Part shown: positions 25,353 to 58,500 of the stretch, one piece after another | Layout: each line of letters opens with the position of its first letter | Numbering within the stretch: position 1 is the stretch's first letter | Source: Candidatus Omnitrophota bacterium | GTDB lineage: Bacteria; Omnitrophota; Gorgyraeia; B26-G9; JBDRCZ01 | Direction of reading: 5' to 3' | DNA: 64,000 bases | Assembly (NCBI GenBank): GCA_043821285.1 | Contig: JBDRCZ010000027.1 | Span: 18,988-82,987, forward strand | Notes under the pieces: generated by a model | What the model saw: only the letters and a program-made list of their open reading frames with translations | Told to the model about the DNA's origin: nothing | Database searches by the model: none | Program-made: the position numbers and the translations under genes

Positions 25353-25460
25353 ATGACAGGCCTAAAACACAAAATATGGTTTAAGGCAATAGCATTCATT
25401 TTAATCCAGGCGTTTTTATGCCTGGATTTGTCATTTGCCGCTGGCGGCGATTTGAAAAAT
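25353..25460 (+). other. Conserved N-terminal leader (signal-peptide-like: K/R n-region, hydrophobic IAFILIQAFLCLDL core, AxA-like SFA|AGG site)
   Basis: Near-identical leaders start the genes at 47675, 51255 and 55592. Confidence 0.8.
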
Positions 25461-28400
25461 GTAAATTCTCTGCTCGCACCGACAATAAAATTAGATGAAT
25501 TAGAAGAAGTATTTAATAAAAAATATGTTGCAGAATCTCCAGAAGAACAGATACTTACCCAGAATTTTAATATCAAATTAAGAAAAACTAAAAAAACTAC
25601 AGAACAAGGCACCGCAGTTTCGATTACAGAAGAGCAAGCGGAGTGTATTAGAGCTGCGAGAACGGGTCTGCTTAATGAGTTTACAAACAAAGTATTTAAA
25701 CGTTATTTGACAGCAGTGCAGATAAATGTTCGCGAATTTTTGCCAAACATGGCTCAGCATATGAGCCGAGCGGAGATTAATATAGATGTAGTTGTCTTGG
25801 GTAATGAGACTGCAGTACGGCTTGCCTTATACCACGGAGCACTGCATGGCATTTTAGCTGAGGAGCGGGGGACAGCAGAAACACCGGAAGAGCGCTTTTT
25901 AGAAGAGGTATTTGTTGTACAAAAAGAATTAGAATATTTAAACAGCCTTTCAGAAAAAGAACAGGATAATTATCTAAAATTTTTGAAAAACTCCTACAGA
26001 ATAAACCACGCGGCATTTTTAAAATTATATAGCCGGTATAAAGAAAAGGTAAAAGAAGCAGAGGATAAGGGAGAGGCTCCAGACTTAAGAGTAATTCTGA
26101 GCATGATTGCCAGTTATGTGAAACAAGTCTCCCGGCGTGATAATGACTTTGGTCAAATAAACTTTGATATGCGCACAAATAAGGCCAAGGATGAGGTTCG
26201 TAAGGTAGTCGAGGGGATAGAGATAGCAAAGGAAACTTCTGCTGGAGCAGAGACATCAGAAGCAGACGTTGAGCCTAACACAGCAGCAATATCAGCAGAG
26301 GAATTAGAAGAAGAGGCAAAAACGTTGATAAAACGTTTTATTGATATTGTGTTAACGGTGACAGGGATTAATTTAATAAAAAGAATATACAATTATTTAC
26401 GTGAAAAGTTGTATTTATGGAACAAATCAAGAAAGCAAAGAAAGATTGAAAGACGGAATGGGGAGCTGGAGAAAATTGATCAGGATGACCCGGATTATCA
26501 AGACACGCTGTTTAAACTCTGGAAATTACAGGGATATGACATTAAATCCCTTAGACCACTATATGCATTAGCCAGACGCGTGGATAAAAGATATGCTGCA
26601 CTGAAGCAAGAACTGGAGACAGGTAATGAGCATATGATTGCCGGGAAGAGTAGAGCATTAAAAGACACAGTAACCCTACGGGTGAATAAACTTGCAGAGA
26701 ATGATACCAGAAATAGAAGCAAATTATTAGAACAGGTACTTAATGAAAATAATTATGCGCTTTTGATTGAGGCATTAGCACTGGTACAGGCTGCATTTAA
26801 CCAGGTTAAAGAGATTAAATTATATGATGTACAGATTATTGCAGCCATTGCCGCAAATAAAGGTGATGGGCAGATTATTAGATTATTACCAGGGGAAGGA
26901 AAGACTTATGTCGGAGCGGCGTATGCCTACCTTAACACTCTTGATGGTGCGAAGGTGCACATGCATACTACTTCTGAGTATTATGCTAAACGTGATGCTG
27001 AAGATGTGCGCGGAGTGTTAGAACTTTTAGGCTTAAGCGCTGCATGTTTAGAAAAAGAGAATGAGGAGAAAAAAGAGGCATATGCGGCCGATGTTCTCTA
27101 CGGGGAGAAATCTGAATTCGGGTTTGATTACTTAAAAGACAATTTGAAATATGAGTCTAAAGAAAAAGTTATGCATGGTCTATACCGGGCAATGGTAGAT
27201 GAGGTGGATTATAATATCCAAGATGATGGACGTACGCCACTGATAATCTCAGCAAGAAGTGTGGAAAATATTTCCGAAGTACTTTATATTGCCGTGAATG
27301 ATGTAGTAGCAGGACTTATCCGGGAACAAGCGGAACAAGAGCTTGAAGAAGATGAAAGATATTATGTGCTGGAGAATTTACCCGGCGATACGACTCCTGA
27401 AAAAGCTGCGAATTATACAACTCATTCTGTTGTGTTTACTGAGACAGGATTAAAAGCATTTGAAAAGCGTCTTTTAGAAAAAGGGTTAGCGGAGTTCTCA
27501 AAAGATGATTTTTTATTTTCTAAGACCCATTATTACATTTTTAGTATGGCGGTGCAGGCGCTGCGGGCGCATAAATTATGGTGTATAGACAAAGATTATT
27601 GTATTAATGAGGATAAAAAAGTTGAGCAAGAAAAAGATAGTCAAGAAGGAGATCAAAGGGCAGATACAAAAGATAAAGAGCCTAAAAAAGGACAGGTTGT
27701 ATTGATTGATGAAAGCTCGGGCCGTCTGATGGAGGGCCGGACATTAAGCCATGGGCTGCATCAGGCAATTGAGGCTAAACACCTAAGAGAAGTAATTACA
27801 GCTGATGAAAGGACTACACTTGAAATTAAAACGATTACCCCGCGTTCAGAAGCACAGGGCTCGATTACGGTAGAGTCATTTTATAAATTATATGAAAAAT
27901 TATCTGGAATGAGCGGGACTGTGGATGAAAATGAGGCCAGGCTCTGGGGACGGCAGGGTAAAGAAGTGGTAAGGGTTCCTTCAAATACCCTGCGCCAGCT
28001 TAAGGAGCATGCGGATAGATTATATCTTACCAACAGAGAAAGATTTGCGGCAATGGCAGAGGCGGCACAAGACAAGCAGACCAGAGGACAGCCAGTTGTG
28101 CTCGGGGTATTAACTCCCGAGGATGCGGATTTATTAAGCGGTATGATAGAGGAGCTTGGCATTGAGCATGAAACATTAGATGCGCGTAATCAAAAAGATG
28201 AAGAGCGGATAATTGCGCATGCCGGAAGAAAAGGCCGGGTTACGATTGTTACGAATATCGCGGGCCGGGCAACAAATATTGTTTTAGGCGGTAAAAAAGA
28301 AATACGTATTCAAGAATTAATATCAGAAGAGAGTCTCTCAGCAGAAACAGCAGAGAAAAGATATAAAGATGAAAAGCAGGAAGTTATTGCATTAGGCGGG

Positions 28401-31400
28401 TTATGCGTTTTTATTGCTGGTAGGCAGCCGAGTTCACGCGGGGATGAACAGTTTGAGACTAGAGCCGCACGGCAAGGCCAACCAGGAGAAAGCGGGCATT
28501 TTCTTTCAGCCGATGACCCGCTATTTGAACAAACCGGCACAAATAAAAAGGTTAGGGAATTAATCGAATATTATCAGAGCGAAGAAGGTAAAGGGGTGGT
28601 TGTCACCCATGTATTTAGAAAAGTTATCCATGAGGCACAAAAGAGATTATCACAGGTGCGGTTGCATGAGAAAAAGCAAACACAAAAATACGAAGAAGTA
28701 TTAGCAAACCAGCGGGAGACCTTTTATCGGTTAAGAGACAGGTTCTTGGAGGAGCCGCAGGAAACATTGCTTGAATTTGTGGAACAGGCGATTGATCTAA
28801 TATTTAGAGATGCGGAAGATATTGAAAAACAATTAGCGCTTGATCCTGAGCTTGCAAAATATAAAACAGGAATTTTAGATGAGGTAAATGAGATAAAAAA
28901 ACAAGGAAAAGATATAAAAGATATAGCAAGAAATGAGGGGATTGTTAGAGAAGATGAATTAAGTAGACTTACAAATTCAGGTGTATTGCGTTTAATGTTA
29001 CAGCGCCAATTTATTAGAGACAAATTTGCTGTTTTTTTAAATATTGGTCTTACAAATGAACAATTAACGTTTTCTAAGGAGCAACTTAAAAATGCAGTAA
29101 CGCAGGCATTAGAACACAGGGCAATATTAGCTAGGCTGATATTGCAGATGTTAGATTTATCTTGGCAGAGACACCTTGGGGATATTGAGGAGTTAAAATG
29201 GGCAATTAACTTTCGGCCGGGTGATGAGCAGAAAAAAGCAGCAGAATTTGGCATAGATGCATTTAAAACCTTTCAGGCAATGCGGGATGAAAATTATTTG
29301 GATGTTTGCGGGGTGGTATACAAAGGCTGGAAGAGATATTTTCGTGCGAAAGCAAAAATGATAGGCCGCCAGAAAGAAGAAGATGGAGAAGTGCCAGAAG
29401 AAGTGCAGGAAAGATTAAAAGACTTAGATGAGCGATTAGGTGGTAAATGGGATTTTCTTAGCAGCCGTAGCGGTCAGGCAGCTGCTACGGGAGGAGTGAC
29501 AGTAGTTGGGTTAAGCGGGATAGTCTATGGTTATGCTGCGCCAATGATACAACAGTCACTACATGATGCTAAAATTGAGCAAATGAATGAGGTATTAGAA
29601 GCGCTTCAGGTATTAGATATAACTAAAGCAACGCAGCTAATTGAAAAATATAATTTAGAAGATACTTTTAATCTTGGCGTAAACGAAGAACAATTGCAAC
29701 AGGAAAAAGACCTTAAGATTATAGAAATAGTATTGTCATCAGATTATACAATAGAAGATGAAGAAGGCGGGCGTTATTTAAGTGTTAGCAAAACAGATGC
29801 AGAAACAGGAGAAGAGGAGCAGACAGAGAAAATTGCGCTTACCTCAGAAGACGATGAAAACCTTGTTACGCGGTTAGAAGAGATAAAAAATAATCCGTCT
29901 GAGATAGATAAAGTAGCACAGGTTATCAAGTTAATAATCGAGAAGGGATTATTAGAATCATTAGGTGGTGACGAGGCTGTGGATGCAAATACAGGTACAG
30001 CCACAGCAAATCAAGATGGACAGGAAAATGGAGCTGCTGGTGAGACCGGCGAATTATTATCTGCAGAGGGCGACGAGGTATCAGATGAGCGTGAAGGAGC
30101 AGGGCAAGCTACTGCCGGAGCCGGGGGTAAAGAAGGAGAGGTTTCTATAGATGAGGAAAAGGCAAAGATAGAAATATCGCTACAGCAGATAATAGATGAA
30201 AATGAAGAAGAGACAGTAAGGACGCTATTATTAAAGGCGTTAATTAAAGATCTTATCAGGTCAGAAAATTATACTTATGCAGTACAAGAGACAGATGAAG
30301 GAGTTTATTTAAACATAATCAAAATAGATACGGAAACAGGAGAAAAGGAGCAGATAGAGAAAATTACGATTACCGAGGAACAGAAAACGATAATCGAGAC
30401 AGTGGGAGTAGCAGAAGAGGAGAGGATAAAGGCAGAAAAAAGGGGGCCGCAAAAACCAAGTTTGTCGGATTTATTTTTATCTAGTGCTACGTATTTAGTT
30501 CTCACAATATTATGGCTATACGCTGCGTATCGGAAATACAAGCATGCTAATACAAAAAGAGAACGTTATATTGCCTGTTTAATGGGATTGTTCGGTGTGA
30601 TTTTTGTCGGGGTTGGATTATTAGGTGCTGGGCCAGCTTTTAATTGGCATGCATCACTGTTTGCGCAGGAGGTAATACATCCGGATTTATTAGAAGAACC
30701 TAAGGAAGAGGTGACAGGAGAAGAAATCGAGCTTGAAGAGGAACTGCCGGAGTTAAATTTTCTTGATGAGGTTGAAGAGCTTAAGGATGTAAGAGACTAT
30801 ATTGCAAAGAGATTTGCGGAATTAGAAGAAGATTTACAAAAAGCCATGGGCAGAATAGATGAGATAATTGAAGATGAGTTATTGGCAAAGGTTAGATATG
30901 TACAAGCAGAGATGGATTTAGAAACTGCCGGCGGTAAAGAGGAAGAGGCGCTGCAGGACCTGCGAGATGCCCAGCAGACATATGATCAACAGGTAAATGA
31001 TTTTGAAGCGGCAACGAACGCTCTGATACAGGTATTAAATACAGAGATTGGGTCAGTTGAAGAGATGGTTGAAAAATTAGATAAAAAGATTGCTAATTTT
31101 ACTGCATTGGATGAAAGGTTAGCAGAGCGGTACGAAAAGACAAAAGAGTTAATTAAAGGTTATCAACAAAAATTAGTAGATATCAGAGAGCAGATTGAGA
31201 CAAATGAGACAACACAGGGAGATTTACAAGAGAAAATAAGGCTTTATGAGCAGCTGAATAACGAGATAATTCCCAAACAATTAGCAGATTTAGATGAGAG
31301 TATTGCATTTGATCAAGCGTGTATTGATGCCCTTACAGCAGCCGAAGATAAAATGGCTGGGCTTACAGCTAACCAAGAGGCCGCACGTCAGAAATATATA

Positions 31401-40400: not shown

Positions 40401-43400
40401 GCACATATCCAAAAGCCAATAATAAGTATAGAACAAACAAGCGGGAACTCGTTAGCAGAATTTGAGGTTTCAGAACCAATACTGGTAAAAGAAGGAGATG
40501 GATACATTTGGGTTGTGAGGATAACTGTTAATGGATATGAACCATTTGATCTATTTAAAATTGTGCAGAAAACAGAATATAGATATGTTGCCATAAACAC
40601 CGGTACCTCACACGGACCAGTACTGATTAATAATCAACACCTGTCTGCTCCAGCAGATGAGCCAGATACTAGTGCTGCTGTTGTTCCAATGTTTGTTAAT
40701 CCAGTGCCAGATTTGGCAACGTATGAAATTTGGGATTTTGAGGAACACGAAGGCCATGGGATTGATATCCCAGTCGTAGCAGGAACACCAGTATATGCAA
40801 TAGCAGACGGTGAGGTAATATTTTCTGGTGAGGATCCAAATGGTAAGAAGGGCTATGCGGTAATTTATGTAACAGAAATTCCAGATGATAAAGGACAGAT
40901 GGAAAAATATGCCGTAGTAAATGGGCATTTAGATGAACACGGGCGCATTGAAGAAGGACAGCAGATTTTTGCTGGTGATACGATTATCGGCAAATCCAAT
41001 GGAGCAAAATATCAGCCGGGAGTCACGCAAGATAGTACTGGACCACATTTACATTTGGGGATGTGGCGTATTACAGGTTTAGAACATTATTCTAATCAAG
41101 AGATTGTCAAAGCGATTTTACATTATAATAGAAAGAGTTCTATAGATCGACAAATAGTTCCAAAAAGGCGGGTAGATCCAGAAAAAGTTTTAGCAGATGC
41201 CGGGGCAGTTGATATCAAAGAACGGGAAAAAGCAGTAGCATTAGCAGCAGCGCAATCCTCACAAAAGACCCCAACACCAACTCCGCAAAGAATCGCTTAC
41301 GCATATGCCGTTAATGGTTTGCCAGTGACACTGTCAGAGTTTTATCTTCATCAACAGACTGGCGGAGCAGCTGCACAAGAAACCCTGCAACAAGCTGATT
41401 TATCTTCAGAACAGAAAAATGGTACGGATAATAGAGCATTATACTCTCAAAATAGAGCCGAAAATAAAACAGAGAATGCAAATAATGATAAGAGAAATTT
41501 TGTTATGATCATCGCGGCATTTTTAGGTTCAAGGCTTATTATGCAATGCATCTACTGGGGGATCCGGTATTTTGGTCTGCTGCCGAAGCTCAGGAAGACA
41601 GAAGAAGAAAAATTGATATACAATCCCAAAAATCCGATGGCAGAAAGAAGACGGGCAGAAAAATTACTCTGGACCAAGCCGGCCTTTAGCACGTACAGGA
41701 TTAGTCCGGAAAATGCAAATCAGGTCATCCATGAATTAAGAGAGAAACAGGCAGCAGAACAAGCAGGGCAGGCGGAACCCGAAGATACAATAGTGGTAAT
41801 AATTGAAGCTGATGACGAGACTATAATCTATAATCTTACTCCGGCGGAAGCTGATGAACTGGGACGCGCGTTATCGGGAAATGTAGTATCTGAGGAGAAG
41901 GCCGGTATAAATATAAAGATTGAAGTGGAAAACTATACCTATTCTGAAGGCCCGCTTGAGGGGAATTGTAAGGAACAGCTGCGGCACCTTTATTATTTTA
42001 TTATGGAATGGCGAAGATTAGAAAATGAGTGGGCGGAAGATGACGAGCACTTGCTTGGCGGGACAGATGAGTGGCTTAATGGTCTGGATGTGTTTTCTAA
42101 TCTGCTTTCTTTCTATGTAAGAAGAGTGGTATTTGAAGGGGAAAAAGATAGCCGGATTACAGAAGACAGCAACCATATCTTTGACCGGATGAATAAACAT
42201 CTTGGGGAACTCACAGTATTCGTACGGGAATTACTCCAGGAGTATAAAAATGCGGCAACTGATGAGGAAAGAACAGGGATTAGTGGGACAATAGGGGATG
42301 TGTTAGGAGAAAAAGGGATTAAACCAAGAAAAGCGGAGTTTATTATTCCGGAAAAAAATCTCAGAATTATTCAGCAGTTTATCCAGGACACTATAGATGG
42401 CCGGGACACTGACACTGACACTGACACTGACACTGACACTGACACTGACACTGACACTGACACTGACACTGACACTGACACTGACACTGACACTATTGTA
42501 AGAGAGATGCAAAGCATTATCGGTGAACAGTTGCTTGTAATATCAAGGGATGATACGAAGGTTGAGGTTACAAACAATAATTGGGAAAAGATTGTTGTCT
42601 TAATCAGTAATCAACTCGATGGCGTAGAGGCAGCAGATATAACTGATGTTGTCGAAAAATATAAGTTGTTCAAAAAAAGAGAAGGTTACGACCTTTTGCC
42701 TGTTTTTGCCTGGTTTCTTGACCCGATCCGGCTGCTATTCATGTTTGCGTTTTCAGGATTAGGTATTGCAATCTGGACAAATAATGATTTTATTGGCGGA
42801 CCGACAGTATTACAATTTTTGCCAGAGTTATTTTCCGCGATTTTAGCACTTAATATTTGCGGTGTGCCTTTCTGGCTGCTGGGGCTGGCTGGTGCAGTAC
42901 TTAATTATATTGCAAACAAAGTAAGTGAAAAGGCGCGTTATCCGGGAGAAAATCCGGTTATTTCTTTTTTGCCCCGGATAGTGCCAGTAAGTTGGTTGTT
43001 TGGAAAAGATGTTGTTAAGGGAAGGTATACTTTTGAGATAAAGGAAGGACGCGGATGGGATCCTACGTTCTGGAGGGTAGCATCTTATATTTTTAGAATG
43101 GTGTGTTCTTTAGGCATAACACTAGGTATATGGTTTGTGGTTATTCCTAATCTGATTACCCCGGGACATGATATAATTCAATGGCTCATCGCCGGAATAG
43201 TTTCCCTTATCGCATTGTTAGACTTTTTTGGCTTATTTTTTATTTTAGTAAATAATGCCTTATTTGAAGGGATACAGGAGGCAGTTGAATCCAATAATAC
43301 CAGTAGACAAATGCAGCAAGATCAGGGTATAGCTAATAGAATACGCGGATTGTTTATGAGTATCCTTAGGTTAATACCTATGCGTGGGCTTAGATTTCTT

Positions 43401-47674: not shown

Positions 47675-50600
47675 ATGAACAAGTCAGTACGGACAGTTTG
47701 GTTTAAGGTAATTGTGGTTATTTTAATTAATGCCTTTCTTTGTTTGGACATTGCATGGGCGGCTGGTGGTGATTTAAAGCGGATCTTCCCCCTAATTTTT
47801 CCCATAAAGAGTCTTAATACCCACCTTGCTCCTTCCTTAGCATTGGAAAAATCTACGGAAAGAGATAGTCTTGTTAGGGTATATGGGGGGGGTAAAGGAT
47901 GGTATAATATGGCGGTAAGAACAACAGAGACGGGTGGTCATACAGAGGCGGCTAATCAAGATAAGCCTGCTGCTACAGGAAATATTCTAACTTCATACAT
48001 TATTGCTAAAAATACATTTGTAGTATTTGCTGTAGGAGGTATTGCTATCATTCTCGCGCTTATCTTCAGCGGCTGTGTTTTTTCAGATCTTGCAAACTGG
48101 CTCGATAAAAATATCCAAAAAGGACTGATAGAATTTGTATTCATGGTCAGTTTCTTTTTTGATATATTTGCTATCATTGGGCTGTTAGCAAATTTTCGGC
48201 AGGGATTTGATACGTCTTCGTGGTATTATTCTGAAAGAAAAAGCTTAATAAAGCAAAAAACTGATGTTACGAATAGGTTGAGAGGCTTAATAAAGATTAA
48301 TGAAACGGCAGAACGAAGTATGGACTGGCCTTATGAGACGGAATTTGACCCGATTATAACGAGAGAGTTTCGCACCTTAAAAGATATAAGTGAACGTCTG
48401 CGCGGTTTTATTCCGCATGTATTAGACAGGGTAAAAATCTTGGGCCGGGACATAACAAAAGAGAAAATAGAAGGGAAAATTCTCCAATTACGGATTGATA
48501 CCAATAGCCGGATAAGACCCAAGGATGATGGTACCCATGAGCTAATCTATCCTAATGACCAAAGAATGACCGCTATTGTACGCTCAATTAAGGAACATCT
48601 TAGATATAATCCGCGCGGAATTGTTATTAATGGACATTTGGGCCGGCCGCAAGAACAAATACAACAAGTTATTAGAGAAACTATCCGAGATAACCCGAAT
48701 TGTTCACGAGAAATGATAGCTTTACTAGCAAAACTGATAATTGCTGAACGAAAACGTGATCCGGAAACTCTGGAACAAGTGTTAGATAATTCTGCTTATT
48801 ATCGTAGTATATTGCCAAAAGCAATAAGAGGTGAGCTTAATGGAGCGGGGTATACCGTAATAAAAGAAAAGATGAAAGAAGATATTGAGCAGATTGTTGC
48901 TGGTAGAGAGTTGGATACTATTTATGACCGGATAGAAGAAGAATTGCAAAGAGCATTGGGAAGGGAAATAAAAATCCAGAGGGCGCCGGATAGTATTGGT
49001 AGTGATGTGCAAGCGCAGATTGACGGTTTACAAAATGAGGCAATTCTCGGACTGCCAAATGTCAGGTTTCATGAAGAAGAGGAGATTTTTGCCGTAGGAG
49101 TCATGTTAGAGGAACTATTAACAAGTTTAGACAACGTTGGATATGTGCGTAACGACACAATACTCGAGTTTGAGGATAGAGTAAAACACCTCTATGACCG
49201 GTCACGGCTGTTCTTTGCTTTAGATGAGCTCAGCGCTATTGTAAGGAAATTAATCGGTGATGTTAATGAAGAGGAATTTAGTGGAATTGTTGATGATACA
49301 AGTCGGCTTTTCGAGGCTTTAGTCAACAATCAGTATATCACTGAACAAGGCGGCATTCTAGACAGATTTGGCAGGGTAAGAATATTTTCTGATATGCAAA
49401 TAGAAGGCTATACAGATGAGCAAAAAGAAAAAATTTTTAAGATTTTGCAAAACTGCCTAAAGAGAAATATAATTCAAAAACTTCAACAGGAAGAAACACA
49501 GAAAAGACTTAGAGAGATAAACAACGTCATTAAAGAAAAGGAAGAGGCATTTAGAAAGGAATTTTTTGCCGGGGCCGAGGTTTCCATAATGGATGCTCCC
49601 GGTCCTTTACTACGCAACCATGTCTCAATCGTAGGGCCTCCACAGAAATCAAATACTGAGCATGGGCTGGGTATTTTAGTAGCGGATGAACTGCGTTCTG
49701 TTGGCAATGCCAGAGAAAATCTGCAGGTAATGATTTTTGGCGGCGGAAATGATTTAATTGAAAAATTGATTTTAGTTGAAGGTATCGTGAAGAATACCTT
49801 ACAGCCAGGGGGAATGCTGGTTTTAGGCAGTAGTGCGGAAACTGCTTTTGTGCTAGAAAGAGCGGGTCCTGATAATAGAAGAAAAATTTGTATTAATAAT
49901 ACGGATGAAGAAATTGAGGAAATTATAAAAATAGTTAAAAGAATCGAAAACATTGCTAAGGCTAAGAAGATAACTATTCGTCACCCCATAGTTATAAAAG
50001 CTAGTAAAAGATCATCGGCAGAAATACTTAGTTTACTAAGAACTATTGGAATAGAGGAAGTTGAAGTTGTTAGAAAAGAAGAATTTTCAGAAATTGCCGC
50101 TGATATTGGTGAGGATACAGACAGACTTTTTAATCATTTGATACAATATGGTTATATTACACAAATTAGAAATGAGTATGGTTTAATAACAGATAAATTT
50201 AAAGGCTTAAAAGATCATGCGGGAATGGAGATAGATTTTTTATATGCGGATAAAAAACAAGAAATATATAATATTTTAAATAGGGTAAAACTTAGGGCGT
50301 CTGATGGATGGAGAGTTAGCCAAGGTCAAGGTGATTATGCATTAGATCTAATGGATGATGAAATTAATAGAATTATTATCGATATTCGTAAGGTATTAAA
50401 CGGTAATCCCAAGGGTTTAATCGTTATGCATGGGACAGTGGGGGTAACTGTTCAGCCGTTGCTTACCGGCACAGAGAAATTGCTAATGGGGCTTGCGGAG
50501 ATTTCAGAAGAGGGAACACCGGTAGTTGTCAGCGGAGCCAGTACTACAGAAGTGGCGAGGAGGCTCGGAATAGAATTAGGTCCAAACTCTCGTATTACCC

Positions 50601-51160
50601 CTTCCGGTATTTCAAATTTGCGGGTGTTAGGAGCGAACGATGAGCTTGATGTGCTCGCGTTAAGGTCCGCAGCAAGAAGTGATAAAAAAATAGAAGAGGC
50701 AGAGCAAAGAATAGTAAATGAAAAAAAATGGCAAGCAAGACGTACTATAGGCTTTTTGATGATGTTCTTAGCTTTCTCAGTAGGAGTTTACATATTAGGT
50801 ATTGGTATTATGAATTTTATTGAGACGCATAAGAATTTGACAGTTATTATAGGAATGCTGTTTTTTGCTATACCAATGGGTACTTGGTTTTCCCATAGAA
50901 AATACCATGGCTCCCTCCGGTATGCCTTTGAGCCATATTTAAGTGAGCAAGATAGTTCTCGAACATCGGACCACAGCTCTAATTCTGCTCCTTTTAGAAT
51001 AAATGATGGAACTAAGAGCTCACAGACTCGAAGATTGGGACACATTGATGAGAACGATGGTGCACATGATATGGGGGCAAAAGAGACACCGGTTATATCT
51101 CCACCAGCAATAACTCAAAGAGAATTAGTGGAGTTAAGAGCAATAGAAATGGCGATCTGA
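47675..51160 (+). CDS. Leader-family protein 2 (1,161 aa): shared leader, 2 TM helices near the N-terminus, large soluble region, 2 C-terminal TM helices; function unknown
   Basis: The ORF track starts at 47633. The preferred start is the ATG at 47675, MNKSVRTVWFKVIVVILINAFLCLDIAWAAGG, 5 nt after a GGAGG. Hydrophobic stretches are FVVFAVGGIAIILALIFSG, FMVSFFFDIFAIIGLLANF and, near the C-terminus, FLMMFLAFSVGVYILGIGIM and VIIGMLFFAIPMGTWF. No known catalytic motif was recognised. Confidence 0.85.
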   Translation: MNKSVRTVWFKVIVVILINAFLCLDIAWAAGGDLKRIFPLIFPIKSLNTHLAPSLALEKSTERDSLVRVYGGGKGWYNMAVRTTETGGHTEAANQDKPAATGNILTSYIIAKNTFVVFAVGGIAIILALIFSGCVFSDLANWLDKNIQKGLIEFVFMVSFFFDIFAIIGLLANFRQGFDTSSWYYSERKSLIKQKTDVTNRLRGLIKINETAERSMDWPYETEFDPIITREFRTLKDISERLRGFIPHVLDRVKILGRDITKEKIEGKILQLRIDTNSRIRPKDDGTHELIYPNDQRMTAIVRSIKEHLRYNPRGIVINGHLGRPQEQIQQVIRETIRDNPNCSREMIALLAKLIIAERKRDPETLEQVLDNSAYYRSILPKAIRGELNGAGYTVIKEKMKEDIEQIVAGRELDTIYDRIEEELQRALGREIKIQRAPDSIGSDVQAQIDGLQNEAILGLPNVRFHEEEEIFAVGVMLEELLTSLDNVGYVRNDTILEFEDRVKHLYDRSRLFFALDELSAIVRKLIGDVNEEEFSGIVDDTSRLFEALVNNQYITEQGGILDRFGRVRIFSDMQIEGYTDEQKEKIFKILQNCLKRNIIQKLQQEETQKRLREINNVIKEKEEAFRKEFFAGAEVSIMDAPGPLLRNHVSIVGPPQKSNTEHGLGILVADELRSVGNARENLQVMIFGGGNDLIEKLILVEGIVKNTLQPGGMLVLGSSAETAFVLERAGPDNRRKICINNTDEEIEEIIKIVKRIENIAKAKKITIRHPIVIKASKRSSAEILSLLRTIGIEEVEVVRKEEFSEIAADIGEDTDRLFNHLIQYGYITQIRNEYGLITDKFKGLKDHAGMEIDFLYADKKQEIYNILNRVKLRASDGWRVSQGQGDYALDLMDDEINRIIIDIRKVLNGNPKGLIVMHGTVGVTVQPLLTGTEKLLMGLAEISEEGTPVVVSGASTTEVARRLGIELGPNSRITPSGISNLRVLGANDELDVLALRSAARSDKKIEEAEQRIVNEKKWQARRTIGFLMMFLAFSVGVYILGIGIMNFIETHKNLTVIIGMLFFAIPMGTWFSHRKYHGSLRYAFEPYLSEQDSSRTSDHSSNSAPFRINDGTKSSQTRRLGHIDENDGAHDMGAKETPVISPPAITQRELVELRAIEMAI

Positions 51161-51254
51161 AAAATTTGACAACTGACAATTAGAAAATTCGAGGATTATA
51201 AGATTCAAAAAACATTTGGATTTATTTAGGATTTAAAAATGTATTTGGTGAGAT

Positions 51255-51352
51255 ATGTGTCAATTAAAGCAAAATATCTTATTTAAAATAATAGCGGTAG
51301 TACTGATAAATGCCTTTTTCTGTATGGATATTGCCTGGGGCCGGCCTATAGC
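51255..51352 (+). pseudogene. Decayed third copy of the shared leader (MCQLKQNILFKIIAVVLINAFFCMDIAW-), frameshifted and truncated; the rest of the 255-aa ORF is spurious read-through over the antisense brnTA
   Basis: The leader and 5' UTR (GTATTTGGTGAGATATG) are homologous to the copies at 47675 and 55592. After GCCTGGG the sequence loses ~25 nt relative to the paralogs, and the frame changes. The downstream ORF body overlaps two well-supported minus-strand genes. Confidence 0.6.
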
Positions 51353-51410
51353 ACTGCTTCACACCGATAGTATCGGAATTCCTGTTGGGAACTTAGTGAT
51401 TTATCTGCGA

Positions 51411-51683
51411 TTAGGAATGCCGGAGATGATGCCGTTCTTTAGCCAGGCGTTCACTGATCCAAGAACGGATAAGACTAAGATACCCCAGCCCCTTATCTGC
51501 AGCGATTTGTTTAAGAGATTTAATCTGCGGTGTATCCAAACGCAAGGAAATGAGTTTCTTTTTTGGACGAACAAATTCTGCTTTTGCTGGGGTGAGTTCT
51601 TCCAAAAATTCTGTGATGCTATGACGATCCCAGAATTTGCGTTCTTCCTCAAGAGACTTAAATTTTGGTATTTTTCTTTTCAT
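51411..51683 (-). CDS. brnA: BrnA-family antitoxin (CopG/RHH-type)
   Basis: 90 aa. The pattern KSLEEERKFWDRHSITEF ... ISLRLDTPQIKSLKQIAADKGLGYLSLIRSWISERL is typical of BrnA antitoxins. It lies immediately downstream of brnT. Confidence 0.8.
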   Translation of the reverse strand: MKRKIPKFKSLEEERKFWDRHSITEFLEELTPAKAEFVRPKKKLISLRLDTPQIKSLKQIAADKGLGYLSLIRSWISERLAKERHHLRHS

Positions 51684-51689
51684 AATTCG

Positions 51690-51956
51690 TTATCTCCTTT
51701 TGTAAAACTTTTGTTCAGCTTTCGACATTGCCCGCGCGGTAATTATTTTTGCGCTGTTTGTGCCGCGATACTCAAATATTATCGTCAGATATCTTCCGCT
51801 TTCTGTTTGCCCGAGGGCGAAATAGCGATAGTCTCGACTTTTCAAAATAAATGGTTTGCCTTCAAAACAAACCTCTTCTACTTCCCTGGGGTCAACGCCG
51901 TGTTTAGCGATATGCCAAATAGTATTTTCGTTCCACTCGATATGTGTAATTTTCAC
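51690..51956 (-). CDS. brnT: BrnT-family toxin (DUF497 ribonuclease toxin)
   Basis: 88 aa. MKITHIEWNENTIWHIAKHGV ... EVEEV matches BrnT/DUF497. A 6-nt gap separates it from the downstream antitoxin gene. Confidence 0.8.
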   Translation of the reverse strand: MKITHIEWNENTIWHIAKHGVDPREVEEVCFEGKPFILKSRDYRYFALGQTESGRYLTIIFEYRGTNSAKIITARAMSKAEQKFYKRR

Positions 51957-52338
51957 ACGTACACCTCAGTTAATAGTATATTTCGAAATACAAAAGATGT
52001 CAAGAGTTTTATGCAACGATAGGAAAATAGCAAGGACACAGTTAATTGCTTATTTTTTAACAACAAATCGCACATGTTGTACGGATTTTTAATATTTGTG
52101 TTATCTGAGCTATCTGTGGTTAAAAAGATTCTCCCGTAAAGCCGCAAGGTTTGCTTAAAGTAATACTTTTCAGTTATACTCAGTACTGCTACACCCATCT
52201 ATCCATGTGATCTACCCATATACTCATTCCCCCATCTTTTACAAAATTCAACTTTTATACAATATTTCAATTTTCTCTTGACCATACAAAAATTGTATGG
52301 TACATTAGATGTATGGTTTACGGCAGGAGGGATGCATA

Positions 52339-53469
52339 ATGGTAAAATTTCCCGTAGGCACACCAGTTATGGGAAAAGATTTAATTGGCCGTCGAGATGA
52401 GTTAAGGCAGTTAGAAGACTTGCTTGTTTCTGGACAAAGTGTCATTTTAACTTCTCCCCGGCGCTATGGGAAGACTTCAGTTTGCCTAGAATTGTTAAGC
52501 CGGCTTAAAAACAAAAAATATTTTGTGGTTTATTTAGATATTTTTTTGATTTTAAGTAAACGAAGATTTGCCGAGGAGATTGTAAACAAAACTCTTGAGA
52601 ATAAACAGGTTAGAAATTTTACGTATCAACTAAAAGAACGTTTTACAGAACTATTTCGTAAAATTGAGGTTAAACAGGTGATTAAAGATTTTGAATTCGT
52701 ATTATCGTTTAAAGATGAGAAGATAGATGAATGGGTTTTATTAAAATCTGCGTTGGAATTTCCAGAAGAATTTGCTAAAAAATACAAACGGAGAATGATT
52801 GTTATTATTGATGAATTTGGCGATTTGGCGAAATTAAATGGCGTGGAATTATTTAAATATATGCGGGCGATTTTTCAAAGACAGTCTTCCTGCAGTTATT
52901 TATTCACCGGAAGCCATGAAAGCATTATGAAAAAGCTTTTTTTTGATAAAAGACAGCCTTTCTTTCGTTTTGGCATTATGATGAAGTTAGACGTGTTACC
53001 AAAAAAAGAGACAAGTTTTTATATTAAGGAAAGGTTTAAACAAGCGGGATTAAAAATATCGGAGCGCGAAATTGATTATATTTTGCAGAAAAGTCACGCG
53101 CATCCTTATTATACGCAGCTTTTGTGTCAGAAGATATATTTTAGGATTTTGTCAAAAGGAAAAAATGAGATTAGCCAAGATGATATAGCAGAGGCATATC
53201 GGGAGGCGGTTATCACGGAGAAAGATTTTTTTGAAGAGCTTTGGATGGACTTAATGAGTAAGAAATATTATGCCAGGGTAGTTAAAGAACTTGTGTTGAA
53301 AGAAGGTCCTATTTATACAGTCGCGGATTTTAAAGGAGTAAATTTGGCAAGGATTCTCAAAAATTTAAGGGATAAAGGAATTATCGTAAAGGAAGATAAA
53401 AAATATAGTTTAAAAGACCATTTTTTCCAAGACTACATCAAAATACGTTTGCAGGGTAAGATGTTTTAA
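52339..53469 (+). CDS. AAA+ ATPase, archaeal-ATPase (PF01637-like) family
   Basis: The ORF track starts at 52309. The preferred start is the ATG at 52339, 6 nt after an AGGAGGG SD. Walker A is SPRRYGKTS and Walker B is IVIIDEF. The length and C-terminal region fit ATPase/DUF234-type proteins. Confidence 0.8.
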   Translation: MVKFPVGTPVMGKDLIGRRDELRQLEDLLVSGQSVILTSPRRYGKTSVCLELLSRLKNKKYFVVYLDIFLILSKRRFAEEIVNKTLENKQVRNFTYQLKERFTELFRKIEVKQVIKDFEFVLSFKDEKIDEWVLLKSALEFPEEFAKKYKRRMIVIIDEFGDLAKLNGVELFKYMRAIFQRQSSCSYLFTGSHESIMKKLFFDKRQPFFRFGIMMKLDVLPKKETSFYIKERFKQAGLKISEREIDYILQKSHAHPYYTQLLCQKIYFRILSKGKNEISQDDIAEAYREAVITEKDFFEELWMDLMSKKYYARVVKELVLKEGPIYTVADFKGVNLARILKNLRDKGIIVKEDKKYSLKDHFFQDYIKIRLQGKMF

Positions 53470-53759
53470 CATTTAAACCGTTGCGCTACGGTAAAAAATA
53501 ACATAGTAATGTAAAAATGGCAGCTTGTGTGGTATAATTATACTAGATCAATTACGTATTATAACTATGTATAAATATGGAGTATTGCGAGTGCCCCGTT
53601 GTGCGGAGCGGCTGTTCGGGGTATTGAGCATAAAAAATAAATAAAAAATTTTACTAGGACACGAAGAAAAACTGAAATAAATCAGACAAGATTAACCTAA
53701 TAGACAAGGAGAACTTTCCTTTATATACTTGTTGCTTGCCTATGTTGAGAGGTATAAGG

Positions 53760-54191
53760 ATGTACAGGCGGTATACCGCAGATATGCTGCGGTCTAATCT
53801 TCATGAGATTTTTGTTAAGTTTGCTGCGGTTTTAGTCCATCTTTTTGGTTCACAGGTCACAGGGCGCCTGGGACCAATGAGTGATGTAGATTTAGCCGTG
53901 CTTTGGGATGACAAAGAACAGCAGCCAATGATGAAAAGCCTTGCTTTACAAGAAGCAGTGAGAACTAAGCTTCAAGATGAAAAGTTTGAGATCGGCCCGC
54001 TTAATGAGCAGCCGCTTAGCTTCTGCTATAATGTGATTAAAGATGGGGTCTGCATCTTTGGTAAAGAGTCTGACCGTGTTAGATACGAAACATATATTCT
54101 CAATGAGTATTTAGATTTTTTGTATTTAGCTGAGGAATACAATAAGGCCTTTACAAAGGCTGTTTGTGAGGAAAAAAGAATTGATAAATAG
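53760..54191 (+). CDS. mnt: Minimal nucleotidyltransferase (MNT-type antitoxin of HepT/MNT systems)
   Basis: The ORF track starts at 53736. The preferred start is the ATG at 53760, 9 nt after a GAGAGG SD. GSQVTGRLGPMSDVDLAVL is the GS-x9-DxD NTase motif. The gene overlaps the downstream HEPN gene by 26 nt. Confidence 0.8.
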   Translation: MYRRYTADMLRSNLHEIFVKFAAVLVHLFGSQVTGRLGPMSDVDLAVLWDDKEQQPMMKSLALQEAVRTKLQDEKFEIGPLNEQPLSFCYNVIKDGVCIFGKESDRVRYETYILNEYLDFLYLAEEYNKAFTKAVCEEKRIDK

Positions 54192-54474
54192 AGAAGAGTT
54201 CTACCGGCGATTAGATGAAATAAGAGAGGCAGTTAACTTCTTAAGAAAAATAAAACAGGAGGACTTAGAAATAGAGGAGAAGTTTCTCTTGGCAAGGTAC
54301 GAGCTGCAGATTATCTTAGAGGCAATGTTTACCACCGGTAATCAAATTATTGCCAATAGCATACTTAGGAAGCCCACGGGTTATAAGGACATTTTAACAG
54401 TTCTATATGAAAATAAGATATTAGAGAAAGAATTATACGAGCAACTAATTCCCTTTGTCGGATTACGTGGTTAA
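54166..54474 (+). CDS. hepT: HepT-like HEPN (DUF86) toxin, apparently C-terminally truncated before the R-x4-6-H motif
   Basis: 102 aa. The protein ends ... LIPFVGLRG*, where DUF86 proteins normally continue ... VGFRNxxVHEY. Its gene order with the MNT gene is the typical HepT/MNT pairing. Confidence 0.65.
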   Translation: MRKKELINREEFYRRLDEIREAVNFLRKIKQEDLEIEEKFLLARYELQIILEAMFTTGNQIIANSILRKPTGYKDILTVLYENKILEKELYEQLIPFVGLRG

Positions 54475-55353
54475 ATTTTTGTTTTTTCTCTTTCTCTACA
54501 TTCGCTACATTTGATTATTCTTTTCTATCTTTTGTCCGGTTTGTTAATTTTTTTCTGCTTTTATAGTATTCTTTGCGTTCTTGGCGGCTTTGCGGGATGA
54601 TTTGTTGCAAAAATCTGCAAAATATTTCCAACCCTTTTTATTTGATGCATAGCTCTTTTTATATCAAACACTTACAACCCATCACACAAAACAGAGAAAT
54701 AAAAAAATCACAAAATACCCTTGAAATTTCCCAAAAATATGGTATACTTGTAAAATGCCTTATTTATAATAGATTTTAAATTTATTTACAAATAATTTAA
54801 CATATAAAAATCACAAATAATTGCAGGCGATAATCAAAAATGGGCCAAAAATAATAATATTGAATCCATTCAGATTTAATATCTCCCTGTTTAGGTTAGA
54901 AAACTCCCTTAAATTCCAGATTGTATAAATCTGGAAAGCTCTGTTTAAAAAGCTGATTGTTTATGCAAAGCGGGGTTGTTTTTGGCTAATTCGATAGGCA
55001 ACTCCTTTCAACACGATTAATTTTATCATACGCGGCAATAAAATAAAACGATTTTTTCTTGCAGCCTAAATACTTATACCTTTTTCTCCTGTGAACCATT
55101 ATTATTTTTGGCGCACTTTTCATTATTCCCTACACGCGCATATGATTCCATAGAGAGCAGGAAACAAAAATGCATCCCGCACGTATTTAGGATGATTGAA
55201 CGTTACTCAAGGGATGAAGATGAGATAAAGCCTTTTGTGAAGAACTGAAGGAGTTAATGAAATGTGTCGATCTATTTATTTAAACAGAGAAAGCACGTGA
55301 AAGATTACCTTATTCAGCGGGCGGATCTTATCGCAAAAGTAAAAAACGGGATT

Positions 55354-55425
55354 AGTATTGCGTATTGAGTATAAGAAATTAAAAAAATCAGACACGATTA
55401 ACTGGATATCAGGATAAAAAAACTT
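55354..55425. repeat. Composite upstream element: family B (AGTATTGCGTATTGAGTATAAGAAATTAAAAAAA) fused to family A (AATCAGACACGATTAACTGGATATCAGGATAAAAAAA)
   Basis: The same B-then-A arrangement occurs at 53581-53710, and in split form at 9661-9900. Confidence 0.6.
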
Positions 55426-55591
55426 AGTGTGCGGATAAAATTTTTGAATTTTAGTATGTCATTTTGATTTTTGGACTTCTCCTCCGAAGGCGGATCCGCC
55501 TCTGGCGGAGATTTTTGGATTAAATTTAGAAATTAGGTCAATTAGAGCAATTAGACATTAATTAGAAATTAAAGAGTGTATTTGGTGAAAT

Positions 55592-58500
55592 ATGAGGAAG
55601 CAGAAATATAATATCTTATTTAAACTAATAGCATTGATACTAATCAACGCCTTCTTCTGCATGGATATCTCCTGGGCCGCAGGTGGTAATATAAGAGGTC
55701 TAACTACCCATCTTGCACCACGGTTGAATATAAGTGATTTAAATAGTGTTTTTGAAAAAGTAACACCAGGAGCGATCCAGTTTGATAAAGATATAGCTGT
55801 CTTTAGATATCAGGTTGGAGAAATTTATGAAAATAATAGGTCCGTAGAAGAAATAACCGCACTGATAGAACAACATAAAGAATCTTTTATATCTGCCTTA
55901 TATGTTGAAAAAGAAATAGAGGGTAATAGTTGGCGTAAGAAAGAACTAAGAAGCATGAATTATACGGAACTGTGCACGCTTATTCCATCGGATGATTCGT
56001 ATGCTGAACCTGTTATTTACGCACAACATAAGATTAAAGCTGTTCTTGGTGGAAGGCGTGTTTCCGCACCTATTAGCATGGCGGGTTCATGGATAGAGGA
56101 TCTGAAATGCGTTATGGATATAGAAGAGCGTTATAGAAATGAGACAGTTATGAGAGAGCAAATGACGCCGAGTCAGCAGAAGATTCATGAGCTATGGAAA
56201 TTATACCGTGACCTGGGCGTAGGAATGGTAATGCCGGTGGATGATAACAACACAGTCTACTTATACAATCGGGAGGACGTGGGGTCGCTATTATATAGCA
56301 ATGAAGAACTTAGGTTTGCATTAGATGGTTTGATTTCACCTGCATCTACTGAAGCCTTGTTTAAGTCAGATGTGCTACAATTAGTAGCTTTAGAACCAAT
56401 GATCTGGGGATTTCCTAACCCAATAACAGCATTGTTCCCAGAGATTCTTCAGATTTGTCTTGAGCATATGCGTTCGGCCGCAGATTTAGACCGAATCATT
56501 GAAAACAGACATAAGGAAGATTTGATTTTTCCTCGAATAAAGCTTAACTTTTTGTTATGCGATGTAGGCGGACTTACAGCAGCAGCCAGAGAACTATATA
56601 TTGATCCACATATTGTTGTGACAGTTGAAACGAGACAAAGACAGGCAAGAGCTGCAAGTATAGTTGCTCAGATACCTTCTCAGATTAAGGCTGAACAAAT
56701 TCCAAAAAGCACGCGGCAAGCTTTTGTAGAACATATGCAGAGAATTGTTCAGATAGCAACAGGTGTTACTAATGCGGAGATTGATAATAGATTGCTCATT
56801 TCCCTAATGAACCGCATAGCTATTAATGAAAATTATCCCCTTTTGGGTGTTAACATATTTAGATTTAGAGTTCGTGATAAAAGAGGCGAGAGAGAATATG
56901 CTAAAGATATTTTTCATTTTGAGGTAGATGTTGCTAAACAGAATGTTTTTATTATGGATAGTGAAGGAAATAGACGTCAATTTGCTTTGTCATCTGGCTT
57001 TGATGTACGAACAATAACCACGATCTTGGATCTTGAGATCAAAACTAAACAAGGCAGCAGAAATCTATTTGAATATCTTTTTGAAAGAAAGTGGCTACCA
57101 GAGGATGTGACACGTGAGATGATTATTAGTCAGGATATGACACCAGAGATCCACTTTTATTTTGTTTTAGATGAACGCCACAGGCTTCAATATACAACCG
57201 CAGAAATTGGACGAAAAACTATAGAACTTGTGTTTATGGATGAAGGTATTCGATGGTGGAAAGGGATTGGGAATACTGAAGAACAATCATACGTATCAGA
57301 TTATGGGGGGAAAGACTTCCGAGTTAGTATAGCAAGCGGTCAGATAGTTACCATAGGGCATTTACATCCTCTATTACACGGCAGTGTTCAAAGAAAGCAA
57401 AAAGTTCTTGTGCATGCAGGTGATGCAGCAGCTTATTTGCATCTTGGCAATCAGGTAAGAGAGCGCTGTCCAAATACAAAAATTTCGAATATAATCGTTG
57501 ATACAGTGGAGCATGGAAAAGAATGGATGGTGAGAATTTTTATTCCAAGATTATCGGTCAATTGGAACGAATATAATGCTCTTATTAAGCAGGCCAAGAG
57601 TAGCGATAAGCAATTAAGAAGAGGGAGTGAACAACGCATCAATGAAATAACCCAACACATACAAGAAAATATAGATGATTATTTTGAAGTAGTTGAAATA
57701 CCGATTATACTTGAGGATGAAGGTGATAGAAAAATGCCAAATCCTCCGCCAGTTGTAGCTACTCCTATTTCTCCCAAACCGTCTTCTGTCTCGTTGTCAG
57801 GTCTTACCTATGATGAACATGAGCGTGACATAGACCGTCGGATTGCAAAAGAGATAGAAAAATATTATAGCAAACCATTGCCATGGGCGCCAAAGTCGCT
57901 CAAGAGGGTAATAGCAGTTTTTATACCCCAGTCTTTTACGAAACCATATACATTAGAAGATTCTCAAGCAAAGCTTGTAATGGAATTCTTGGAAAATGTG
58001 GGGTTAGTTTCTCTAAAAGACCTTTTCAAAACAGAGGTTCGCAGTGGTCGAGTATGGCAAATTGATAGCCGGCCGAAAAAAGTATATGCTAATGGCCATG
58101 CTGGGCCTCGGGGAATTTATGTATTTAATCCTGATACTATTTTTGGGGGGCCTAAAGATATAGTTAGATGGGAAGCGGGTGTGTTGATTCATGAGATTAT
58201 TGCCAAAGCGGGCTGTTCACATAATCAAGCATTAGCAATGCAAAAGGTTTTTGACTGGTATTATCGGGATAAAGGAGGATGGATTTCAGGAGATGTTTGG
58301 CAGCACCGCATTAATACTAAAGTTGCTGGATTATTGACAGACTTAAGCGCTTTGAGCGAGTGGCCAGAGCTTCCTCAAGGCAAGGGGGCTGAAATATCTC
58401 GCGACCTTGCTGAGCAATCTGGATTAAAAGCACCACCAGGGACGACTACTTCTCAGGAAAAGATAGTTCTTTTAATAAGACTTATCAATGATGGTCTTGA

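Follow-up and report, generated by a model that had tools for sequence, protein, structure and literature searches.

The products of a group of same-strand genes in a 64,000-nucleotide (nt) stretch of a Candidatus Omnitrophota genome (contig JBDRCZ010000027.1, positions 18,988 to 82,987; "the window" below means this whole stretch) begin with a shared leader module of about 60 residues, which continues into bodies that are unrelated to each other. Judged by profile searches and gene arrays, this leader is a previously undescribed, Omnitrophota-wide N-terminal module defining the giant-protein system of the phylum, and its kind is that of the family-specific signal and sorting peptides. Its function is probably, with appreciable room for doubt, that of a lineage-specific Sec-type targeting or sorting module of this giant-protein system. 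An initial annotation of the window had drawn attention to the leaders; the observation is real and far beyond chance, and was overstated in detail.

The leader module and the proteins that carry it

A profile of the four window leaders was compared by HMMER with 1.84 billion representative proteins at a threshold of E ≤ 1e-3. It matched 109 protein clusters (50% identity), 107 of them at the extreme N-terminus (residues 1 to 30) of proteins of 67 to 6,383 amino acids (aa). A six-frame translation of the window contains the core [IVL][QN]AF[FL]C[ML]D[IL] at four places only, and in the window the family hidden Markov model (HMM) matches the four leader open reading frames (ORFs) only (E 1e-15 to 1e-24; next best E 0.9). 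These results rule out a chance likeness of signal peptides. The module has no match in Pfam or NCBIfam, a PDB profile search returned spurious matches only, and word-indexed protein searches with leader alignments gave none or three short fragments, the index being too coarse for a hydrophobic query of 60 residues.

Homologous N-termini stand at 25353 (the giant gene), 47675 (g2), 51255 (g3) and 55592 (g4), as the initial annotation had described for four consecutive genes, but g3 is a stump with only 29 homologous codons; the window thus tallies three intact leader genes and one 5' stump. The leaders, called near-identical at first, have identities of 48 to 69% (amino acids) and 57 to 74% (nucleotides) over 29 codons. 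The claim that the mature parts are unrelated stands: pairwise blastp of the window leader proteins aligns the first 45 to 55 residues only (within residues 1 to 55, E 1e-9 to 1e-11), with no meaningful matches between the bodies. More generally, similarity ends sharply at about residues 60 to 65, even between paralogues of one genome.

The anatomy of the module was described from column statistics over the 107 N-terminal members. A basic n-region, M-x(3-10, K/R-rich), precedes the helix, with a mean of 3.07 K+R and 0.07 D+E, compared with a mean of 1.10 K+R after the helix. The helix motif is F-(K/R)-x-I-(A/S)-x-x-L-I-(Q/N)-A-F-L-x-(L/M), with a hydrophobic stretch of about 13 to 15 residues (13 between K13 and D27; 2.15 to 2.45 in a 19-residue Kyte-Doolittle window). 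It is followed by the c-region D-(I/F/L)-(A/S)-W-A and, after the predicted cut, (A/G)-G-G-(D/E/N)-L. From (A/G)GG, a variable spacer of some 6 to 20 residues leads to a second box, (S/T)-x-L-(A/S)-P-x-(L/V/I)-x-(I/L)-(D/N/S)-x3-h-x3-F, here called the LAP box. The THLAP(S/R)L box reported as conserved in the window is present as xLAP in the giant (SLLAP), g2 and g4 (both THLAP) but gone from the stump. Near-invariant positions are F23 (104/107), D27 (99/107), L46 (105/107) and P48 (93/107). The aspartate, described earlier as embedded in the hydrophobic core, lies at -5 from the A-x-A site, at the boundary of the h- and c-regions. Helix conservation is periodic at 90 to 100 degrees (p = 0.002), and the conserved face includes the polar Q/N and D, which suggests that the helix itself may also be read by a specific protein. 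In some array members (L015 4166-7750 and 29790-33650, L013 13093-18042; L numbers denote loci or contigs and P numbers proteins) the signal helix is divergent and ordinary-looking and an (M/T)LSPxLxI...F box is kept. Of the two halves of the module, the second box may therefore matter more, and the HMM count may understate the size of the family.

All 24 of the top matches that were looked up belong to the window's own metagenome-assembled genome (MAG; Candidatus Omnitrophota bacterium, ABH952_ tags). This genome holds at least 26 leader genes among roughly 2,500, namely the 24 looked-up proteins, including g2 and g4, with the giant and the stump. Besides singletons, they form small clusters on several contigs (MFH1776242 to 244 with 247; 816, 818 and 819; 348 and 349; 822 and 823). 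The initial proposal of a fixed N-terminal targeting module on unrelated bodies therefore holds in terms of distribution, with at least 26 genes here, about 107 clusters and at least 48 body families. It had also left room for a common signal peptide of the whole lineage. The module is not the lineage's default signal peptide, because other ORFs on the same contigs bear ordinary Sec signal peptides or lipoprotein signals without the module motif; the leader genes are, moreover, strongly clustered.

Pattern scans of genome and metagenome collections with a 10-sequence alignment gave 13 loci, the two named ones being Omnitrophota MAGs, while the 63-sequence leader alignment was too diverse for such a scan. 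By HMM, almost all scanned loci contain tandem same-strand leader arrays, with six leader genes at L010, five each at L003 and L007 (one divergent in L007), four each at L004 and L006, three at L002 and two each at L008, L009 and L012. The gene order on L014 is leader, PilZ, leader, PilZ, PAS-HD-GYP, leader, leader (PGM and methyltransferase), a 6,387-aa leader giant with SecA domains and, further on, PilZ and leader. On L015 there are two giants together with PilZ genes and a further three leader genes, of which two have a divergent helix with the LSP box preserved; its array surrounds a 6,278-aa giant without a SecA match in Pfam. A SecA-like giant stands in a same-strand array with other leader genes in the window and on L014. 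Taken together, the arrays show the module to mark what is, by sequence, the paralogous set making up the "giant-gene" loci of Omnitrophota.

The bodies are diverse. Removing the first 90 residues from 96 members left bodies that fall into 48 BLAST components, 38 of them singletons. Pfam domains in 40 members include methyltransferases, PPDK_N/PEP-utilizers, guanylate kinase, NDK, PGI, TreT and NUDIX, as well as GGDEF, HD/ACT, GDPD, HEAT, M50, SecA_DEAD and SecY, and site-2-protease-like proteins are among the leader-bearing members. Further transmembrane (TM) segments were found in 64 of the 84 members of at least 300 aa, with the second one often at residues 85 to 150. With so many TM segments, and with the module also present on the putative machines themselves (SecA-like giants and a SecY-SecA fusion), the earlier label "cargo" is doubtful. 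This fusion, P0116 (L016 717-5576; 1,619 aa), joins leader, SecY and SecA_DEAD/PPXD in one protein, with the SecY domain at aa 382-704 of its partial copy P0050; P0024 and P0064/P0112 combine the leader with SecA_DEAD. Such a fusion of leader, channel and motor appears unusual in its own right. In the 90% cluster of P0050, the fragments P0113 to P0115 are labelled as a Candidatus Pacebacteria/Paceibacterota MAG in NCBI, reflecting either mis-binning or a presence of the family outside Omnitrophota.

PilZ genes lie between leader genes at L003 (6041-6415), L004 (4183-4599 and 7491-7850) and L005 (3207-3719), and on the further contigs L014 (277-636 and 36013-36375) and L015 (3657-4019 and 33693-34055). 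BLAST of the PilZ proteins of the related loci against the window ORFs gave no match. A PAS-HD-GYP phosphodiesterase is encoded at L004 7906-9780, and the leader member P0074 bears GGDEF. The PilZ, HD-GYP and GGDEF genes point to a possible control of the arrays by cyclic di-GMP.

Some other neighbours recur. A helical, K/E-rich protein of 550 to 567 aa (60 to 66% identity) is encoded directly upstream of leader genes at L002 342-2045, L008 7971-9623 and L010 2-277. It has an ordinary signal or anchor of its own, is matched by nothing in Pfam or PDB, lacks a counterpart among the window genes and was not upheld as a partner of the module. At L015 7898-8952, an insertion sequence element (rve integrase and HTH_Tnp_1) lies between leader genes, beside small repeated ORFs of 61 to 87 aa ending in ...GELVITD(R/K)M(K/R)VFYNHKKRG.

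Probable membrane targeting and its alternatives

In the favoured reading, the first part of the leader would act as a signal sequence of Sec or signal recognition particle type with the N-terminus in the cytoplasm, and would bring the N-terminus of very large, mostly multi-pass proteins to the cytoplasmic membrane. Signal peptidase I (SPase I) would probably cut after A-W-A, the predicted site, and so leave the LAP box on the outer side of that membrane as a possible handle for a common partner in sorting or assembly. The leaders have the grammar of Sec/SPase I substrates, with a basic n-region, an h-region of 13 residues and small residues at -3 (A/S/C in 95/107) and -1 (A in 94/107, A/S/C in 106/107), and K/R at +1 to +5 occurs in just 9 of the 107 members. 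Other export signals were considered and rejected. For a lipoprotein signal (signal peptidase II), Cys at profile column 25 is found in only 31/107, follows A-F-L and lies in no lipobox. The n-regions are Lys-rich without the RR motif of Tat signals, and no leader has the G^F-T-L-x-E site of type IV pilin (class III) signals (^ marks a cut), in contrast to a neighbouring ORF (L013 34-525) with the true pilin-like N-terminus GFSLIELL. No ESPR, YSIRK or KxYKxGKxW model was listed for five leaders at E ≤ 10 (Pfam) and E ≤ 1 (NCBIfam), the holdings of these models in the two libraries being unconfirmed.

The giant gives a further indication of an outside location. Its TM hairpin has a strongly basic loop (AYRKYKHANTKRERY), the stretch after it is acidic, and it is in this following segment that an M23 peptidase of peptidoglycan type lies.

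Several points weigh against this reading. Cleavage and topology are predictions from the sequence grammar. Domains that depend on cytoplasmic cofactors occur in the bodies, among them the SecA-like ATPase, whose Walker motifs are intact, as well as PGK, PPDK, NDK, guanylate kinase and S-adenosylmethionine (SAM) methyltransferases. P0015 (one weak C-terminal segment, at a lower threshold) and P0017 (none) have essentially no other TM segment dividing the body from the leader, and enzymes using ATP, phosphoenolpyruvate (PEP) or SAM without a dividing TM segment fit badly with export. At the first TM segment after the leader, K/R is higher before than after in 27 proteins versus 10, and this bias suggests that the segment between the leader and the next TM may be cytoplasmic. 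A partner reading the LAP box was not identified. Finally, the ratio of nonsynonymous to synonymous substitution rates (dN/dS) in three orthologous pairs is 0.51, 0.32 and 0.22 for the first 70 codons versus 0.28, 0.25 and 0.09 for the rest. The idea that leaders are under stronger constraint than bodies is not borne out by these values; a constraint above that of the bodies applies to key positions and not to the whole leader.

It is possible, if on balance doubtful, that the module stays uncut in the membrane as TM1, an anchor or assembly helix that collects the leader proteins into one membrane supercomplex. The conserved face (F12, I15/A16, L19/I20, F23, L26/D27 and W30) would pack on a common partner or on other family members, and in many proteins the enzyme-rich bodies would be cytoplasmic. 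The one-sided conservation with its polar Q/N and D, the further TM segments and the often early TM2, the cytoplasm-type ATP, SAM and PEP enzymes and the charge bias at the next TM segment would all fit such an anchor, as would the K/R-rich segment ahead of the SecY-like TM1 of the SecY-SecA fusion, which fits a cytoplasmic SecY N-terminus. However, the A-x-A rule is kept in 95 to 99% and the first five mature residues are nearly free of K/R, which is the grammar of a cleaved signal peptide, and a stretch of 13 hydrophobic residues from K13 to D27 is short for a stable anchor. An anchor would also leave the topology problem in place for members without another TM segment (P0017, P0026 and P0046, with g4 having one weak C-terminal segment), since their bodies would still be outside if the helix is oriented with its N-terminus in.

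We think it unlikely that the module is a tag for an accessory, family-encoded Sec-like translocon, whose SecA-like motor and SecY-like channel, carried by some members of the family, would read the leader and the LAP box; the initial annotation had suggested the SecA-like motor of the first gene as a possible reader. Accessory Sec systems employ a dedicated SecA/SecY pair and depend on a special signal peptide together with the first mature residues; the substrates of SecA2/SecY2, such as Streptococcus GspB, carry a special signal peptide and an AST domain, a logic that the mature-region box behind the module mirrors. A near full-length SecA-like region directly behind the leader of the giant would suit this idea. 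It consists of a DEAD-like domain, PPXD, P-loop domain and wing/scaffold domain (Pfam; the last, PF07516, at E 8e-18), with Walker A (GEGKT, aa 514) and Walker B (DEVD, aa 616) intact, and its alignment with canonical SecA covers about 88% of its length at about 32% identity. The leader proteins with SecA_DEAD, including the fusion with SecY, and the SecA-like giant inside a same-strand leader array in the two contigs with enough context (the window and L014) would fit as well. Housekeeping SecA is the best NCBIfam model for the giant's region (477 bits, under the cut-off of 814), whereas SecA2 equivalog scores are far under their cut-offs (TIGR03714, 334 bits versus 930; other SecA2 models far below), and a homologue search with the region returned canonical SecA proteins only and no giants. 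Eleven related loci have no SecA-like sequence within 10 kb of the arrays, and the 6,278-aa giant of the L015 array lacks a SecA match. A SecY-like domain, fused to SecA_DEAD, is present in P0050/P0116, outside the window. In this Omnitrophota set, unlike accessory Sec systems, the SecA- and SecY-like domains are themselves parts of tag-bearing proteins, and the N-in grammar would put the SecA-like domain of the giant outside the cytoplasm, without ATP.

Host-targeting signals combine a signal peptide, a short spacer and a short linear motif on unrelated, clustered bodies, an architecture which the module resembles. It is nevertheless improbable that the module is an export signal of PEXEL/RxLR kind, by which an epibiotic predator would deliver effectors into its prey, where the bodies would find their cofactors. 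The presence of cytoplasm-type enzymes despite an export-type leader would be accounted for, and the way of life is suitable: Omnitrophota are described as ultra-small epibiotic predators or parasites (PMC10066038), and dead prey cells have been observed to contain predator RNA (PMC13153191). However, soluble effectors are hardly to be expected in a family whose members mostly cross the membrane several times, the SecY-like and site-2-protease-like proteins included; no delivery machine is linked to the arrays at the loci examined, and there is no direct evidence of protein transfer. We would give equally little credence to a combined proposal by analogy, in which helix and LAP box form a prokaryotic counterpart of PEXEL/RxLR that is read by the family-encoded SecA/SecY-type translocon. 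The products of about 1% of the predator's genes, a set of membrane proteins and of enzymes dependent on ATP, PEP and SAM, would by this route leave the Omnitrophota cell and end up in or on the prey cell.

At the DNA level, the initial annotation had proposed an expression module with a homologous 5' untranslated region (UTR), which the comparisons do not support. The UTR homology holds for the stump and g4 only (85% over the last 20 nt); all other pairs have 25 to 50% identity, which is background, and have only a Shine-Dalgarno-like GGTGA or GGAGG in common (GGAGG upstream of the g2 ATG at 47675). The UTR GTATTTGGTGA(G/A)ATATG is likewise found at the stump and the fourth gene only, and the Shine-Dalgarno and start codon segment GTATTTGGTGAAATATG (55578-55594, + strand) is common only to g4 and the stump (51241-51257). 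Between the window leader regions, blastn found one match of 23 nt and one of 18 nt, both between g3 and g4, whose leaders have 74% nucleotide identity; in the other leader pairs, the longest exact words in common are 10 to 15 nt. In each leader pair, 7 to 11 of 14 to 20 identical residues are encoded by different codons, so that about half of the conserved codons differ synonymously. The intergenic regions ahead of the window leader genes are unlike in length and sequence, and the window leaders have neither invertible elements nor genes for recombinases at their flanks. From these comparisons, the leaders are homologous but old. Gene conversion, for which the initial annotation had proposed a look at the 5' UTRs, is not what keeps the leaders alike, because synonymous sites are saturated and, beyond the two short g3/g4 matches, there are no DNA repeats between the window copies; as far as the codons tell, the leader is conserved at the protein level by purifying selection on its key positions rather than by recent gene conversion.

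Leaders are slightly more similar within a locus than between loci (0.405 versus 0.348, permutation p about 2e-4), and the nearest-neighbour leader lies in the same locus in 16 of 35 cases, which fits a tandem duplication followed by replacement or shuffling of bodies. The idea that giants are concatenations of units with a leader each was rejected, as a search inside them gave no significant further copy of the leader. The idea that UTR and leader form a DNA-level cassette, a substrate for recombination or gene conversion that swaps bodies as in Mycoplasma vlp and Borrelia lipoprotein families, could draw on the g3/g4 likeness, the sharp boundary at about residue 60 between same-genome paralogues with unrelated bodies and the within-locus similarity, but is hardly tenable because the synonymous divergence is saturated, and the background UTR identities, short exact words, unlike intergenic regions and missing recombinases speak against it too.

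Genes of the window

The features of the leader region are listed in Table 1.

Table 1. Leader genes, leader copies, domains and intervening genes of the window (^, predicted cut).
Feature	Position	Strand	Description or basis
Giant gene	25353-47381	+	7,342 aa with leader module; ORF list, N-terminus, leader HMM E 1e-21
Giant leader module, aa 1-56	25353-25520	+	MTGLKHKIWFK-AIAFILIQAFLCL-DLSFA^AGGDLK...SLLAPTIKLDELEEVF
11-bp inverted repeat	25403-25428	+	predicted hairpin, -15.6 kcal/mol, inside giant leader codons for IQAFLCLD
SecA-like ATPase of giant, near full-length, aa 443-1322	26679-29318	+	Pfam, NCBIfam, motifs
Peptidase_M23 domain of giant, about aa 5135-5239	40755-41069	+	Pfam E 9e-11
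g2, 1,161 aa (NCBI MFH1776477.1)	47675-51160	+	leader, PGK-like domain, TM segments
g2 leader module, aa 1-70	47675-47884	+	leader HMM; 10-residue insertion ahead of THLAP box
Phosphoglycerate-kinase-like domain of g2, aa 581-824	49415-50146	+	Pfam PGK E 4.5e-22
Leader stump g3	51255-51341	+	29 homologous codons only; sequence comparison
Spurious 255-aa ORF	51255-52022	+	leader stump plus antisense strand of brnTA; ORF list
brnA	51411-51683	-	Pfam CopG_antitoxin 4e-16
brnT	51690-51956	-	Pfam BrnT_toxin 1.5e-12
ATPase_2/AAA protein	52309-53469	+	Pfam
MNT-type nucleotidyltransferase	53736-54191	+	Pfam
HepT	54166-54474	+	Pfam
g4, 1,583 aa (NCBI MFH1776483.1, locus tag ABH952_02840)	55592-60343	+	leader; Pfam-negative body
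g4 leader module, aa 1-58	55592-55765	+	MRKQKYNILFK-LIALILINAFFCM-DISWA^AGGNIR...THLAPRLNISDLNSVF

A Kyte-Doolittle scan places the TM hairpin of the giant at aa 1707-1758 and, by eye, about 15 to 20 helices at aa 5383-7131, while g2 has two TM segments at aa 115-172 and two at aa 1025-1073. The body of g4 has no Pfam domain. The remaining genes of the window are housekeeping genes (anthranilate synthase, histidine kinase, YchF, FdhD and others). An AAA_14/DUF4143 ATPase gene occurs near leader arrays both in the window (546-1754, - strand) and on the unrelated contig L014 (37937-39115), which may be a coincidence.

In the g3 stump, a gap of 8 nt has removed AAGG and the LAP box. The ORF was taken at first for a decayed gene of 255 aa, which is ruled out, as beyond the stump it runs antisense to brnTA. 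By its sequence, the stump is the 5' remnant of a leader gene, and a toxin-antitoxin/defence islet (51255-54474) now lies where the body was. A terminator-like hairpin (TCCGCCTCTGGCGGA, then a T-run) at 55495-55509, 83 nt upstream of the g4 start codon, suggests that g4 may be transcribed apart from the upstream islet. Promoter-like matches in the window show no excess over the shuffled expectation.

The inverted repeat in the giant leader has parallels in other leader genes, including L003 15167-19357. A hairpin is predicted over the (L/I)IQAFLxLD codons, because ATCCAG is the reverse complement of CTGGAT. Over 32 leaders, the 27-nt hairpin stretch has a mean of -4.1 kcal/mol versus -2.3 kcal/mol for synonymous recodings, with 0 of 200 recoded sets reaching the observed mean, a comparison uncorrected for shared ancestry. 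A near-identical 27-mer was found in an unrelated gene of another metagenome.

Relation to known systems and meaning

Among known export signals, the module is closest in grammar to the signal peptides cut by SPase I, with which it shares the basic n-region, the h-region of about 13 residues, the polar c-region A/S-W-A and early mature residues nearly free of K/R. Ordinary signal peptides are not conserved in sequence, whereas in the module F, Q/N, D and W are near-invariant on one face and a second box follows in the mature part; its cut is a predicted one. ESPR of autotransporters and TpsA proteins, YSIRK-G/S and KxYKxGKxW with AST are, like the module, conserved N-terminal export signals on very large surface proteins, but no sequence relationship to them was found and the bodies behind the module are enzyme-rich multi-pass proteins, not adhesins.

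Sorting signals of the PEP-CTERM/exosortase, GlyGly-CTERM/rhombosortase and LPXTG/sortase systems also consist of a short motif, a TM helix and a basic cluster at an extreme terminus, occur on many unrelated paralogues and are restricted to lineages. These signals are C-terminal and have a known partner enzyme, whereas the module is N-terminal and its partner was not found. PEXEL of Plasmodium and RxLR of oomycetes share with the module a signal peptide, a short motif at a fixed distance, a large clustered repertoire of unrelated proteins and a host-dependent organism; they are eukaryotic and have a different motif, while the bodies behind the module are mostly polytopic membrane proteins and prey delivery is here only a proposal. 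Polymorphic toxins resemble the leader proteins in their conserved N-terminal trafficking part, variable downstream parts and tandem arrangement, but the module has only about 60 residues and its variable parts are whole multi-domain bodies. No toxin Pfam domains or immunity genes were found in the leader bodies, and brnTA and MNT/HepT beside the stump are free-standing modules.

The nearest relatives are the Omnitrophota giant proteins themselves, for which divergent SecA domains and downstream PilZ genes are described by West-Roberts et al. 2023 (10.1101/2023.11.21.568195). The leader proteins agree with them in phylum, many TM helices, divergent SecA_DEAD and PPXD, adjoining PilZ genes (at the related loci) and a domain repertoire of PPDK_N, NUDIX, methyltransferases, GGDEF and HEAT. 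Divergent SecA_DEAD and PPXD in a multi-TM protein, which is one mark of an Archaeovorin-type protein, are found in the window giant, whereas a length above about 30,000 aa is not (7,342 aa), and most leader proteins measure 0.3 to 7 kaa rather than more than 30 kaa. The window giant keeps the SecA wing/scaffold domain, in contrast to the SecA domains of giant proteins, which are reported without it (West-Roberts et al., 10.1101/2023.11.21.568195). A 2026 preprint gives a DeepTMHMM signal-peptide call for about 48% of long Omnitrophota proteins and met the same inside/outside topology paradox with that program (10.64898/2026.06.07.730766). Searches by term of these two studies (10.1101/2023.11.21.568195 and 10.64898/2026.06.07.730766) and of Seymour et al. 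(2023) gave signal-peptide predictions but no shared leader in any of them, and no LAP box in the first two.

Omnitrophota giant proteins rank with the largest proteins known, and neither where they are located nor what they do is settled; on the placement of the enzyme-rich parts inside or outside, the two recent studies are each internally at odds. The module provides a bioinformatic marker for the whole system that reaches beyond an arbitrary length cut-off, and a short portable peptide that is directly testable for topology and for a partner. It also displays the diversification of the system, in which at least 48 unrelated bodies stand behind a single conserved address label. Should this label prove to be a dedicated export or prey-targeting signal, it would delimit the set of effectors used by an entire phylum of ultra-small predators, and a routing to prey in the manner of PEXEL/RxLR would explain the cytoplasm-type enzymes behind an export-type leader.

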